NCBI GenBank assembly: GCA_910587745.1
Contig: CAJUNE010000002.1
Coordinates: 2,097-66,096, forward strand
Length of the DNA stretch: 64,000 bases
Reading direction: 5' to 3'
Source: an uncultured Bacilli bacterium
GTDB lineage: Bacteria > Bacillota_I > Bacilli_A > RF39 > UBA660
The notes below the pieces were generated by a model that made no database searches, was not told the origin of the DNA, and worked only from the letters and a program-made list of their open reading frames with translations. The position numbers and the translations under genes were made by a program. Below are positions 3,005-47,232 of this stretch, in pieces. How positions within the stretch are numbered: position 1 is the first letter of the stretch; the number at the start of each line of letters is the position of its first letter.

Positions 3005-3010
3005 CTTTTT

Positions 3011-3095
3011 ATTATTTTTACAGATTTTGTGTTTTTAGCTAGACAGATTTTATGTATTCTGTTTTTGACTTGTGTCTTTTTGTATGGTATCTTGA
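3011..3095 (+). promoter_or_regulatory. promoter with upstream CAGATTT-type repeats (paralog of 47090-47232)
   Basis: TTGACT (3065-3070), a 17-nt spacer containing a TGn extension, then TATCTT. It is preceded by ACAGATTTT and TAGCTAGACAGATTTT. About 65 nt are roughly 80 % identical to 47165-47230. Confidence 0.55.
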
Positions 3096-3116
3096 TTGGT
3101 GAAAGGAATATTTTAT

Positions 3117-5876: not shown

Positions 5877-6818
5877 TTAATATTCTTTTAGTATTTTTAA
5901 ATAGTTCTTTAATTCATTACTAGGATTTATTTCTAAGCAATAGTTTATTCTTCCTATAATGCTATTTAAATATTTCTCTTTATCTTTTTTTAGATGTTTA
6001 CAATGACTTTCTAGTCCATATTTTTTTATATAATACATCTCTTGTCTTATTTTTCTTTTATATTCTTTCATTATATTTATTTTCTTATTTACTATTATAC
6101 CTGTTACTAATTGTCTACTATTATTTTGGATAACTTTTGTTTTTTTCTCATTTAAATTATATCCCATTTCCTCTAAAAAAACTTCAACTTTATTCTTAAG
6201 CTTTTTGACATTAAAATCACCTGAAAATGTTAAATCATCACAATATCTTGTGTAACTTATTTTTCTGTCTTCACAATATTTTCCTATATATTCATCAAAA
6301 TTTTTTAAAGCTAAATTTGATAAATAAGGACTGGTAGGAGCGCCTTGTGGTAAATAATCATAGTATGTACATAGTTTAACTAATAATACTTTTATTTCTT
6401 TAGGGAATATACTATTTGGTAAGGAATTATAAATATTCTCAAATGTGATGTTAGTAAAAAAATCTTTTATGTCTAGTTTTAAAATGACTTTTTTATCTAT
6501 ATGAGGATAAGCATTGTCTACTAGTTTTTTATTTGGTATGTATGCACAGGCATATTTAGATATTTTTAAACCATATAAAACATTATTTAATATATTCTTT
6601 TGAATACTTTTTAAGATTGGTTTTGGTACTAATAACTCTCTTTTAGTCCCATCTTTTTTATTTATATATTTGGAAGTATAAAACTTTTCAGGTTTATTAC
6701 TTATAGTGTATAAGATATTTAATTTTTCTTTATCACTAAACTTATTTTTTACTAAGTCTAATGATAAAATAAATTCCTTAATTTGTTCTTTGGTTAAATA
6801 CTTCCACATTAAAATCAC
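5877..6818 (-). CDS. retron-type reverse transcriptase
   Basis: LPQGAPTSPYLSNL, YTRYCDDLTFSG (YxDD), NAYPH (NAxxH) and RQLVTGIIVNKK (VTG). About 310 aa with no extra domain. The probable true start is ATG 6809, after AAAGGTGA. Confidence 0.85.
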   Translation of the reverse strand: MILMWKYLTKEQIKEFILSLDLVKNKFSDKEKLNILYTISNKPEKFYTSKYINKKDGTKRELLVPKPILKSIQKNILNNVLYGLKISKYACAYIPNKKLVDNAYPHIDKKVILKLDIKDFFTNITFENIYNSLPNSIFPKEIKVLLVKLCTYYDYLPQGAPTSPYLSNLALKNFDEYIGKYCEDRKISYTRYCDDLTFSGDFNVKKLKNKVEVFLEEMGYNLNEKKTKVIQNNSRQLVTGIIVNKKINIMKEYKRKIRQEMYYIKKYGLESHCKHLKKDKEKYLNSIIGRINYCLEINPSNELKNYLKILKEY

Positions 6819-6824
6819 CTTTAA

Positions 6825-7001
6825 AAAGCAGTACTTTAAAATTATCTTATATAGATATCATGGACAAAAGTATAATGAAATTATACCTTAGCCTTTAGGC
6901 GGGTCCTTGCTAGCTATATTAGTAAATGAGTTATATAAAATCTTTCGAATAAGCGACTCGCTTTTCTATCTGCTATTTCAAACAGAAACCTCTACTGCTT
7001 T
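6825..7001 (-). ncRNA. candidate retron msr/msd non-coding RNA
   Basis: A 9-bp inverted repeat: AAAGCAGTA (7001-6993) and TACTGCTTT (6833-6825). G6992 follows directly after the 5' repeat. Internal hairpins include GTATAAT-TTC-ATTATAC. It starts just downstream of an extended -10 and ends just before the RT RBS. Confidence 0.45.
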
Positions 7002-7007
7002 ATTCGT

Positions 7008-7016: not shown

Positions 7017-7050
7017 GATATAATATTAAAATGCACTAATTATTTTTTTA

Positions 7051-7345
7051 TTATGTCGAAATCTGTCGTACGAATTTTGTTGCTATTTACTCTTTAATAA
7101 TTTAGAATAATAACTTGAGCGTTAGGGCTAATGCATTTACTTATACCATTATTTTTTATTCTATTACATTCCCTTGGGGGTTTTGACGTAGAAAGGAAGT
7201 GATGTTGTGGAGTTTCGGATAAGAGTAATTTTACCGTTTAAAAAAACATTAGTCTTAAAGATAAGGCTAATGCTTACACGCAAGTAGTAGGCGTTAGACT
7301 AACCCTAACGCTCTACTAATTTAATATTAACATATTTTTTAAATA
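7051..7345 (-). ncRNA. structured RNA locus, paralog A (unknown family), directly upstream of the retron
   Basis: Conserved extended -10 (TGtTAATAT, -10 at 7329-7324). An 11-bp closing helix pairs 7313-7303 with 7127-7117. Helices are compensated relative to paralog B. No ORF is conserved between the copies. The 3' tail (7051-7123) is conserved. Confidence 0.6.
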
Positions 7346-7353
7346 ATTACAAC

Positions 7354-33763: not shown

Positions 33764-33781
33764 ATTATTTTTCTCCTCAAT

Positions 33782-33956
33782 AAATTACTATTTATGCACA
33801 ACTTTGTATTAAATATTATACCATTAAAAAAGCAAAATCTAAACTGATTCTACTCTTATTTTAAAAAAAAATTATCTAGTCTAACACCTAGTATTATAGA
33901 AATTTGGTATAAGTTTTTAAGCAAAAAAAGTGGAACCTTTCAACTCCTTCAGGGGG
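33782..33956 (-). repeat. about 175-bp terminator-plus-promoter module, copy A (upstream of vanZ-like gene)
   Basis: About 90 % identical by eye to 34485-34659. It contains CCCCCTGAAGGAGTTGAAAGGTTCCAC plus a T-run and an extended -10 TGgTATAAT. Confidence 0.8.
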
Positions 33957-34123: not shown

Positions 34124-34471
34124 TTAGACAATATTTTCACCCAAAATTATTTTAGGCATTGTCATTAAACATCTATTCCAACGTTTATAAAATTTTTCTA
34201 CACCAAGTTTAGACACTCTTGCATGTGCTTCTTCGCTTTCTAGCACCCAATATAAGACATATATAACCTTACCCACATTTTTTGTAAGTCGGATAGGTAG
34301 CTCACCTTTTTTTACTGCATTAAAATCTTTTTGTCGATGAGTACGTTTTATATAATGTACATCAATAACTCCATCTTGTTTCAAATAAAATTCTGCTACT
34401 TCCTTCATTAGTTCTTCAATTTCATCAAGTTTGTTTAGTTTCGCTTCATATATACATATTTCATTAAACAT
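34124..34471 (-). CDS. hypothetical protein (115 aa), possibly a dimeric alpha-beta-barrel fold
   Basis: An intact ORF behind the repeated promoter module. The function call is weak. Confidence 0.45.
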   Translation of the reverse strand: MFNEICIYEAKLNKLDEIEELMKEVAEFYLKQDGVIDVHYIKRTHRQKDFNAVKKGELPIRLTKNVGKVIYVLYWVLESEEAHARVSKLGVEKFYKRWNRCLMTMPKIILGENIV

Positions 34472-34484
34472 ATTCCACCTCTAC

Positions 34485-34659
34485 AAATTACTATTTGTGC
34501 AACACTTTATATAAAAATATTATACCATTAAAAAAGTAAAATCTAAACTAATTCTACTCTTATTTTAAAAAAATTATCTAGTCTAAGACCTAGTATTATA
34601 GAAATTTGGTATAAATTTTTAAGCAAAAAAAAGTGGAGCCTTTCGGCTCCTTCAGGGGG
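34485..34659 (-). repeat. about 175-bp terminator-plus-promoter module, copy B
   Basis: Paralog of 33782-33956. Its 5' (minus-strand) part doubles as the terminator of the candidate sRNA. Confidence 0.8.
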
Positions 34660-44853: not shown

Positions 44854-44859
44854 TATTTA

Positions 44860-45197
44860 TTTAGAAAATATGTTAATATTAAATTAGTAGAGCGTTAGGA
44901 TGCAATCTAATATCTACTTTTTGGGTAAGACATTGACTGTAATAGTTAATGTCATTTTTATTATTCTGAACAAGGTTACCCTTATTTGAACCTTCATCTA
45001 ATCACACTCCTTACTAGCCCAAAACCCCGTAGGATAAAGAAGAGTCGGATAGTGAATAGAAAAGGCAGACATTAGCCCTAACGCTCAAGGTATTATTCTA
45101 ATTTATTAAGTATTAAATGGCAATAAAATTCGTACGACAGATTTCGACATAACACTTAAAAAGATGTGATTTTTTATAGTCACATCTTCTTTGTTTT
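44860..45197 (+). ncRNA. structured RNA locus, paralog B (unknown family), stand-alone with its own terminator
   Basis: It has the same extended -10 (TGtTAATAT, 44871-44879). A 10-bp closing helix pairs 44890-44899 with 45077-45086. The conserved tail is 45087-45152, and the terminator is AAGATGTGA-N10-TCACATCTT (45161-45188). Confidence 0.6.
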
Positions 45198-47089: not shown

Positions 47090-47232
47090 ATTATTTTTTT
47101 AATTTTACAGATTTAAGGTAAACTGCTATATAGATTTGTGACCTTTAGCTTAGCAGATTTAGTGCTTTTAGCTAGGCAGATTTTTAGGATTCTGTTTTTG
47201 ACTTTTATTATTTTGTATGTTATTTTGTTTTC
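47090..47232 (+). promoter_or_regulatory. promoter with 3-4 upstream CAGATTT-type repeats (paralog of 3011-3095)
   Basis: Upstream repeats: ACAGATTTAAGG, ATAGATTTGTG, TTAGCTTAGCAGATTTAGTG and TTAGCTAGGCAGATTTTTAGG. The promoter is TTGACT (47198-47203), a 17-nt spacer with TGt, then TATTTT (47221-47226). Confidence 0.55.

Follow-up and report, generated by a model that had tools for sequence, protein, structure and literature searches.

Chromosomal type I toxin-antitoxin (TA) loci with antisense RNAs that overlap the 3′ end of the partner transcript are known from Bacillus subtilis, with txpA/RatA, bsrG/SR4 and bsrE/SR5 as examples. Here we describe a locus of about 310 bp that is present twice, in inverted orientation, in a 64-kb stretch of DNA from an uncultured Bacilli bacterium (contig CAJUNE010000002.1; the whole stretch of 64,000 nucleotides is called the window in the following). 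We interpret each copy as a type I TA-like cassette, in which a small mRNA whose open reading frame (ORF) is short would be controlled by an overlapping, convergent antisense RNA, and from the sequence we give this interpretation a probability of roughly 55%. The cassette shares with the B. subtilis loci a small ORF of less than 60 codons with its own promoter, a (here predicted) convergent small RNA (sRNA) of about 80–200 nt encoded in cis over the 3′ part of the mRNA, an intergenic location and the presence of several diverged paralogs per genome. In contrast to the clearly hydrophobic membrane toxins of txpA/RatA, bsrG/SR4 and bsrE/SR5, the peptides of the cassette are cationic, have charges scattered along their length and do not pass a 10-of-15 hydrophobicity rule, and a direct-repeat operator upstream suggests activator control of the cassette.

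A second group of systems resembles the cassette in the folding of the mRNA. For the toxin mRNAs of hok and aapA1 a fold-back of the 5′ end onto the 3′ end with sequestration of the Shine-Dalgarno (SD) sequence is described (PMC5416894, PMC6733600). The systems hok/Sok of plasmid R1 and aapA1/IsoA1 of Helicobacter pylori have in common with the cassette the long-distance 5′–3′ closure, an SD sequence sequestered by an upstream anti-SD segment, and alternative pairings, since CCCUAACGCUC of the cassette can pair with the 5′ end or locally. Their antisense RNAs target the 5′ or initiation region and act after 3′ processing, whereas the overlap in the cassette is at the 3′ end. The hosts differ as well, the cassette being found in metagenome-assembled genomes (MAGs) of uncultured gut Bacilli/'Tenericutes'. 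By analogy, the predicted position of the antisense RNA is closest to txpA/RatA and bsrG/SR4, and the predicted mRNA folding is closest to hok and aapA1.

Copy A extends from position 7040 to 7350 and copy B from 44855 to 45165. A repeat finder delivered two pairs of conserved arms, 7304–7350/44853–44899 (47 nt, 96% identity) and 7051–7133/45070–45152 (83 nt, 92% identity); in the core between these near-identical flanks about half of the positions differ in a pairwise alignment. A preliminary description of this DNA had reported 7051–7345 and 44860–45197 as reverse-complement paralogs sharing several identical blocks. The repeat finder and the alignment bear out the paralogy, and all of the listed blocks are visible in the alignment. 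The strand which we consider to carry the small mRNA, plus in copy A and minus in copy B, is termed the mRNA strand. The opposite one (minus in copy A, plus in copy B), to which the preliminary description had assigned a single structured transcript, is termed the antisense strand. Our interpretation is built on features computed here, namely promoters, SD sequences and ORFs, helices with their strand preference, terminator-like hairpins, paralogy and cassette exchange. The features of the mRNA strand are as follows.

7054–7070, plus strand: copy A, direct repeat TGTCGAA-N3-TGTCGTA adjoining the −35 box upstream; putative operator, by inference for an activator of the response-regulator type.
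45135–45151, minus strand: copy B, direct-repeat operator TGTCGAA-N3-TGTCGTA (putative), found by pattern scan.
7080–7108, plus strand: copy A, small-ORF promoter TTGCTA-17-TAGAAT of the sigma-A type, found by promoter scan.
45095–45123, minus strand: copy B, small-ORF promoter TTGCCA-17-TAGAAT, found by promoter scan with 10 of 12 matches.
7115–7335, plus strand: copy A, predicted small-ORF mRNA; start deduced from the −10 box, 3′ end uncertain.
44870–45088, minus strand: copy B, predicted small-ORF mRNA, with a helix pairing 45076–45086 with 44890–44899.
7117–7127, plus strand: copy A, 5′ arm of the long-range helix, GAGCGTTAGGG, pairing with 7303–7313.
7303–7313, plus strand: copy A, 3′ arm of the long-range helix, CCCTAACGCTC; on the other strand part of the 5′ hairpin of the sRNA.
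7190–7203, plus strand: copy A, extended SD sequence AGAAAGGAAGTGAT, its core about 9 nt 5′ of the start codon.
45001–45013, minus strand: copy B, SD sequence TAAGGAGTGTGAT, its core 9 nt 5′ of the ATG.
7207–7287, plus strand: copy A, small ORF with GTG start, 26 codons (MEFRIRVILPFKKTLVLKIRLMLTRK) and TAG stop.
44914–44997, minus strand: copy B, small ORF with ATG start, 27 codons (MKVQIRVTLFRIIKMTLTITVNVLPKK) and TAG stop.

Promoter, SD sequence, start codon and open frame are present on the mRNA strand of four diverged variants of the cassette, i.e. copies A and B and two variants from relatives (loci L003 and L152/L153), and the earlier statement that neither strand has a conserved ORF is therefore wrong. 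Boxes and 17-nt spacing are preserved in the promoters of L003 (TTGATA-17-TAGAAT) and L152 (TTTACT-17-TAGAAT), and the spacer sequence varies. An extended SD sequence of 12–14 nt (AGAAAGGAG in L003) precedes the start codon by 9–11 nt in all four variants and lies about 90 nt past the predicted transcript start. The ORF is longer in the relatives, with 38 amino acids (aa) in L003 (MKEAILTFIKSLFCRQNKTTSTNIYIHMDKIEVNVFSK) and 41 aa in L152/L153 (MKEAILTFIKSLLGRQNKMTSTNIYIQVDKIKVNVFSKKFK), where it was called as gene P0122 by a public pipeline. The ortholog of the copy A peptide in L001 has a single difference (R6K), and that of the copy B peptide in L002/L134 reads MKVQIRVSLFRIIKTTLTITVNVYHKK. 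The distance from the start codon to the stop is 81 nt in copy A, 84 nt in copy B and 126 nt in L152; thus the frame survives a length difference of 42 nt, and these three variants terminate at the TAG that ends an invariant AAGTAG. Judged by base composition, open frames of 26, 27 and 38 codons would arise by chance with probabilities of 0.13, 0.12 and 0.05, respectively.

Both predicted mRNAs fold strongly. The minimum free energy (MFE) is −64.9 kcal/mol for copy A (z = −5.1), where the 5′ and 3′ ends are paired, SD sequence and start codon are buried, and the SD sequence pairs in the MFE fold with an upstream U-rich segment. For copy B it is −67.5 kcal/mol (z = −5.6), with SD sequence and start codon inside a long imperfect hairpin. 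The hairpin that buries SD sequence and start codon contains a conserved G-rich loop, GGGGUUUUG. This strong folding (z about −5) and the conservation of the loop would also suit a structured, non-coding or dual-function sRNA of about 220 nt on the mRNA strand, in which the SD-like sequence and the frame are incidental or secondary. The substitutions point the same way as they respect helices more than codons; the differences between L003 and L152 are located in a hairpin loop and are mostly non-synonymous. Such an sRNA would leave aside that every variant combines the extended SD sequence with a start codon at that distance and an open frame, that indels preserve the frame and that the stop position is conserved; there is also no Rfam match on either strand. 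We consider it a distinctly unlikely explanation.

The pattern of substitutions in the helices separates the two strands. The preliminary description had pointed out a GC-rich closing helix, GAGCGTTAGG(G) with (C)CCTAACGCTC, which we found at the positions given for both copies and which is retained in every homolog found; L003 and L152 show a double compensatory change in it, from GGG/CCC to GAA/TTC. Read on the antisense strand, 88% of the cells of this long-range helix are paired and 12 are unpaired (A·C or C·A and one C·U), and one-sided variation of a pair does not occur. Read on the mRNA strand, the helix comprises 22 bp; 96.4% of the cells are paired, and G·U accounts for one-sided variation in 8 pairs. 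In the local 5′ hairpin the situation is reversed, as the antisense strand has G·U at 3 pairs in most sequences, which would be C·A on the other strand. A conserved inverted repeat alone is silent on the strand; it is the pattern of G·U against A·C that assigned helix and hairpin to different strands, and therefore the long-range helix belongs to the RNA of the mRNA strand and the local hairpin to a short RNA of the antisense strand. Two further helices had been put forward as kept by compensatory change. The columns of the first (TTGCGT:ACGtCAA versus TTTTGG:CCAAAA) are not homologous, neither the MFE nor the consensus folds use it, and it is missing in L003. The second (CATTAG/CTAATG versus GACATT/AATGTC) is a real hairpin in every variant, with a shift in register.

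The short RNA of the antisense strand and its promoter are located as follows.

7324–7352, minus strand: copy A, sRNA promoter TTGTAA-17-TAATAT with a TG-extended −10 box, TGTTAATAT, found by inspection.
44871–44879, plus strand: copy B, extended −10 promoter of the sRNA, TGTTAATAT, within a conserved block.
7240–7317, minus strand: copy A, predicted antisense sRNA of about 78 nt, with a 48-nt overlap with the ORF.
44886–44963, plus strand: copy B, predicted antisense sRNA of about 78 nt with 5′ hairpin and terminator, overlapping the ORF by 50 nt.

In copy A the sRNA consists of a 5′ hairpin (about 7318–7285) and a terminator hairpin, CATTAGCCTTATCTTTAAGACTAATG, after which comes T7 (7275–7240). 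In copy B the hairpin at 44929–44953 with its U-rich tail was scored as terminator-like by the scan, and the arrangement in L003 is alike. L003 and L152 have equivalent promoter boxes (TG-n-TAAACT and TG-n-TAAAAT, respectively) at a 17-nt spacer. The short RNAs fold with z = −4.6 (copy A), −3.8 (copy B) and −7.3 (third variant), and they are complementary in full to the last 48–50 nt, approximately, of the ORF and to the 3′ end of the mRNA. A covariance model of the short RNA (model R2) scored copy A with 88.5 bits and copy B with 95.7 bits, both copies being part of its training set.

These results bear on the transcript of the preliminary description, a single structured non-coding RNA of 270–300 nt that would start at the TGTTAATAT promoter, with the GC-rich helix closing it. 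In its favour, copies A and B are 96% identical in the promoter-like block, the long RNAs of the antisense strand fold beyond their shuffles (z = −3.8 and −2.4, compared to −5.1 and −5.6 for the RNAs of the mRNA strand in copies A and B), and read-through of the internal terminator would yield such an RNA. Nevertheless, in every variant a hairpin with a U-run follows about 78 nt downstream of the putative start, the 12 unpaired cells of the closing helix correspond to G·U on the other strand, and a conserved 'tail' of 70 nt past the helix is explained by promoter and operator of the opposite strand. The conserved SD sequence and ORF would remain without explanation. A single long RNA is thus very unlikely in our view, and what is left of the former 'promoter and start' block is a putative extended −10 promoter, predicted to drive an RNA of about 78 nt rather than about 300 nt. 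In the same way the locus is indeed conserved, structured and paralogous, with hairpins kept despite sequence change, while strand, length and non-coding status had probably been misjudged for the main transcript.

Two other statements on the nature of the locus were confirmed. In accordance with the absence of a known RNA family, a covariance-model search with Rfam gave no match at the gathering score in the whole window; at E ≤ 10 the matches around both copies, on either strand, were limited to eukaryotic miRNAs and snoRNAs at chance level, and ARAGORN found neither tRNA nor tmRNA. A recent DNA duplication with random drift, which had been named as a possible refutation, is not what we see. 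In MAGs other than the source of the window there is an ortholog of type A with 96% identity and there are orthologs of type B with 90% identity, conservation is block-wise, and both strands of both copies fold better than shuffled sequences (z = −2.4 to −5.6). These three observations together argue against a drifting recent duplicate. Mimicry of the 3′ end of 16S rRNA by the core was considered and rejected: AUCACUUCCUUUCUA on the antisense strand comes near the anti-SD end of 16S rRNA, and it is more simply explained as the complement of an extended SD sequence that is followed by start codon and ORF.

The model of a TA-like cassette would work as follows. A sigma-A promoter (TTGnnA-17-TAGAAT) with the direct repeat upstream would drive an mRNA of about 220 nt for a peptide of 26–27 residues (38–41 in the relatives). 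The extreme 5′ end of this mRNA (GAGCGUUAGGG and about 10 further nt) would pair with the 3′ end, CCCUAACGCUC, and fold-back and sequestered SD sequence would make the full-length mRNA translationally inert. The TGTTAATAT promoter would drive the sRNA of about 78 nt, with its 5′ stem-loop and a terminator hairpin with U-run. This antisense RNA may pair with the 3′ part of the mRNA, which would then be degraded or kept locked. The peptide would be made only upon activation of the promoter, for which a response regulator at the direct repeat is the probable agent, or upon a shift in the balance between the two RNAs. We infer here that the cassette is transcribed and translated, that the peptide is toxic and to which type the regulator belongs; toxicity is the most likely role of the peptide judging from the arrangement of the locus. 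Post-transcriptional silencing as the mechanism, together with the architecture, is the model to which we commit. Paralogy (two diverged copies within 64 kb), patchy distribution, occurrence at several intergenic sites and exchange of the core fit the class of type I TA loci. Regarding the usual features of type I TA loci, the sequence shows a small ORF with ribosome-binding site and promoter and, in silico, an mRNA folded into an inert form, and the hydrophobic-toxin rule failed. No described toxin or antitoxin family was matched in Rfam, Pfam, NCBIfam or PADLOC.

Several points weigh against a toxin-antitoxin cassette. All transcript ends are predictions, the terminator of the mRNA is not clear-cut, and the antisense promoter was identified by inspection and falls below the 9-of-12 threshold of the promoter scan. 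The strand test includes five sequences from three or four lineages, and the 4 sequence types covered come from one narrow lineage overall, so its statistics are weak, and 29–33 of 500 shuffles reach the observed covariation values. For proteins of less than 50 aa a transmembrane rule asks for at least 10 of 15 residues from IVLFCMA (Fozo et al. 2010, PMC2887945); the best 15-residue window of the cassette peptides has 8–9 hydrophobic residues. Charges occur throughout the peptides, and the net charge amounts to +6/+7 in types A and B and to +3 in L003. The A and B peptides share about one third of their residues, and L003 and L152 differ by 1 synonymous and about 6 non-synonymous changes. It may be that structure, or translation as such, outweighs the sequence of the peptide. 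The peptides gave no match in Pfam (E ≤ 10), NCBIfam (E ≤ 10) or PADLOC (E ≤ 1). Including their polar or charged C-terminus (TRK, PKK, SKKFK), the peptides are, as far as sequence can tell, strongly cationic, partly hydrophobic and not clearly transmembrane.

The nature of the peptide has to be seen together with the operator. Within the window the pattern TGTCG-N5-TGTCG occurs solely at the two copies, compared to 0.2 occurrences expected, and the direct repeat is kept in L002, L003 and L134 with the consensus TGTCGAA-N3-TGTCG(A/T)A. A repeat and −35 box like those of the cassette, 90% identical over 40 nt, precede a histidine-kinase gene in MT836753.1 (L140:1501-1539). This record is labelled 'Bacteriophage sp.' yet contains bacterial cell-wall glycopolymer genes (GHMP kinase, NTP-transferase/HAD, SIS, WecG/TagA) and is probably mislabelled. 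From this similarity the direct repeat is probably a shared, putative response-regulator binding site. A regulated small cationic protein without toxicity, e.g. a feedback or envelope-stress factor under two-component control that is fine-tuned by a cis-antisense RNA, would have just such an operator ahead of its −35 box, like that of a kinase gene near cell-wall glycopolymer genes. Copy B is indeed located among envelope genes (GtrA, DUF6020, LytR_cpsA_psr, Lgt), and the missing clear transmembrane character is in favour of this option as well. On the other hand toxin loci are the more typical place for heavy translational silencing, antisense overlap, multiple diverged paralogs and cassette exchange, a specific protein partner is hard to reconcile with so weakly conserved a peptide, and no two-component system was identified in the window. 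A non-toxic protein of this kind is the main alternative to our model, and it appears rather unlikely to us.

Evidence from relatives supports an exchangeable unit and involves the retron next to copy A, whose reverse transcriptase (RT) defined most of the DNA that was compared. Homologs were sought by nhmmer and BLAST, using 80 loci that encode relatives of this RT and derive from MAGs of uncultured gut Bacilli/'Tenericutes' and, more distantly, from Lachnospiraceae. Cassette homologs were found in close relatives only. They are listed with the identity of the RT to that of the window.

L001: RT 97%; core of type A, 96% identical to copy A; between AbgT and msr.
L002 and L134: RT 95%; core of type B, 90% identical to copy B; between AbgT and msr.
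L003: RT 73%; third core type; 3.8 kb upstream of the RT, with a cation-efflux gene and parA as neighbours.
L152 and L153: RT outside the stretch examined; fourth variant, similar to L003; at the cation-efflux/parA site.
L004: RT 69%; the start alone is visible as the contig end cuts the cassette; after Bax1-I, 1.9 kb downstream of the RT.

The cassette occupies four different intergenic sites. The same AbgT/msr site can be compared in the window (7040–7350), L001 (L001:9455-9770) and L002 (L002:4305-4625), and it contains either core A or core B. AbgT is 100% (L001) and 99.6% (L002) identical to the copy of the window and the RT 95–97%, yet the cores still differ at about half of the positions. 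Near-identical flanking genes with swapped cores indicate that the core was exchanged as a cassette and did not diverge gradually; presumably the exchange occurs through recombination or gene conversion via the conserved flanks. The cassette is absent at the AbgT–RT site in relatives with an RT of 79–83% identity. In L150 (L150:278-628), L149 and L151 the AbgT–msr spacer without cassette holds another small ORF of about 30 codons (...SLSEKELNKLKKEIC), and this site seems to collect small genes. An insertion of the kind of a miniature inverted-repeat transposable element, with terminal repeats or a target-site duplication, was rejected as explanation: comparison of filled and empty AbgT–RT sites reveals replaced, unrelated sequence, and there are no clean ends. 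In the independent Logan assemblies L142–L147 (RT 95% identical) the contigs break in the conserved tail or helix arm of the cassette, within the first 60–130 nt, which is indirect evidence for multiple cassette copies in those genomes too.

Further searches added little. Model R2 found no further copies in 93 sources, and loci with more distant RTs yielded none with nhmmer or R2. Metagenome contigs scanned with 24-mers yielded L134 (with the same nhmmer score as L002) as the one true match, next to two chance matches. In viral contigs 53 matches to 15-mers were all due to chance, and two further viral scans gave nothing; BLAST against plasmids gave no match, and against phages it recovered the operator block only. 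A search with the peptides added the L152/L153 variant alone.

The retron beside copy A comprises two elements.

5880–6809, minus strand: retron RT of 310 aa, Ec107-like or type III-A-like, with no adjacent effector gene.
6823–7003, minus strand: msr-msd non-coding RNA of the retron, a separate element between copy A and the RT.

The RT matches RVT_1 of Pfam and, in PADLOC, RT_Ec107-like (3.8e-122) and RT_III-A (5e-105); its match to retron_St85_RT of NCBIfam (9e-64) is below the cutoff of that model. Copy A is 230 nt away from the RT and 20–50 nt from the retron's own promoter, TGTTATAAT. The a1 repeat of the retron, AAAGCAGTA, is located at 7002–6994 and followed by the branching G, and a2, TACTGCTTT, at 6836–6828. 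In about 55 loci a1 is found near −190 and a2 ends 14–18 nt before the RT start; the window, with −192 to −15, conforms to this. The two repeats covary strongly, as in AAAGCAGTA followed by G with TACTGCTTT, AAGCAGCA with TGCTGCTT, GAGCAATA with TATTGCTC, ACAGCAGGAGCAATA with TATTGCTCCTGCTGT and others, and G always follows a1. A consensus fold of 33 loci shows this covariation together with a near-invariant msr hairpin, GCGAGTCGY; the 33 loci keep G.GAGTC. The retron lies in a housekeeping block (cation efflux, ParA, ParB, MscS, DUF951, AbgT, retron, YchF, Bax1-I), and no effector gene is apparent beside the RT of the window. For the Ec107 branch no associated protein was found either (Mestre et al. 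2020, PMC7736814). In two relatives the RT is accompanied by an additional ORF. That of L138 (L138:1049-1828), between RT and YchF, encodes 259 aa and matches no Pfam family and nothing in PADLOC, and that of L004 (L004:3925-4503), between AbgT and RT, encodes 192 aa and has no PADLOC match. These ORFs may be accessory or effector genes of the effector-less retron clade.

The cassette itself has similarities to the non-coding RNA of Ec107-like or III-A-like retrons, namely a structured RNA of about 200 nt, a closing inverted repeat of about 11 bp, G residues at the junctions, its own promoter and, for copy A, an RT beside it. Unlike an Ec107-like msr-msd it has no a1 ending in GCAGTA followed by G, no GCGAGTCGY hairpin and no a2 at 14–18 nt before the RT. 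The inverted repeat of the cassette does have adjacent G residues, and its strand preference points to an RNA antisense to the RT. We rejected copy A as the msr-msd of the retron, with copy B as an orphan second non-coding RNA, on the grounds of a1/a2 location, lack of room, covariance model and complementarity. A covariance model of the retron RNA (model R1, 33 loci) scored 6823–7003 with 99.9 bits, the tail of copy A with its flank (7028–7139) with 18.8 bits (E 0.15) and copy B with 9.6; the cassette scores lie within the noise of 69 matches. The longest complementarity between cassette and retron RNA is 9 nt and not above chance (7–10 nt in shuffles). Most RT loci have 190–260 nt between the upstream gene and the RT and thus no room for a cassette. 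A tblastn search found no second RT in the window, and copy B is without RT.

A looser link to the retron may be imagined in two forms. In the first the cassette is a second template or non-coding RNA for the RT, or stands for the missing effector. Copy A is placed very close to the retron promoter, in relatives the cassette recurs less than 4 kb away from the RT at three sites, which is suggestive, an effector is not known for Ec107-like retrons (PMC7736814), and the closing helix is superficially like a1/a2. However, the canonical msr-msd is a separate element (6823–7003) with whose covariance model the cassette scores at noise level, and complementarity to the retron RNA is at chance. Copy B has no RT in the window and is 37 kb away from copy A. 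In the 190–260 nt that most RT loci leave upstream no cassette was found, and RT relatives of 79–83% identity are without cassette at the AbgT–RT site. As most of the DNA examined was centred on RT genes, the proximity is also biased. We rate a retron-linked element as very improbable. In the second form the cassette is functionally coupled to the retron, either with the peptide as missing effector or with the retron guarding or regulating the cassette, and the A and B cores would be alleles of an effector. Such coupling would explain the recurrence of the cassette at several sites around the RT; it is nevertheless highly improbable in our estimation.

Two other repeats of the window were observed. 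A family of direct repeats at 3007–3097 and 47094–47230 (86 nt, 80% identity) with reiterated (A/G)CAGATTT is located about 4 kb from copy A and about 2 kb from copy B of the cassette. Furthermore, a regulatory region of about 190 nt is duplicated at 33767–33956 and 34470–34659, ahead of two neighbouring genes on the minus strand that encode 172 aa and 115 aa. Its parts are a terminator (GGAGCCGAAAGGCTCC and a T-run), a promoter, a second promoter with extended −10 box, and an operator-like near-palindrome on the minus strand, CTAGGTCTTAGACTAG, which reads CTAGGTGTTAGACTAG in the second copy.

The position of copy A beside a retron of an effector-less clade is a noteworthy juxtaposition, for which the evidence favours coincidence. 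As a type I TA-like locus the cassette would be unusual in having a cationic rather than a clearly membrane-spanning peptide, an operator of the activator type and an exchange of whole cores among near-identical strains. With ORFs of 26–27 codons such cassettes are missed by automatic pipelines. If our interpretation holds true, they would represent a type I TA-like family that is new to the literature, from a very AT-rich lineage of uncultured gut Bacilli/'Tenericutes' that has been without annotated loci of this kind.

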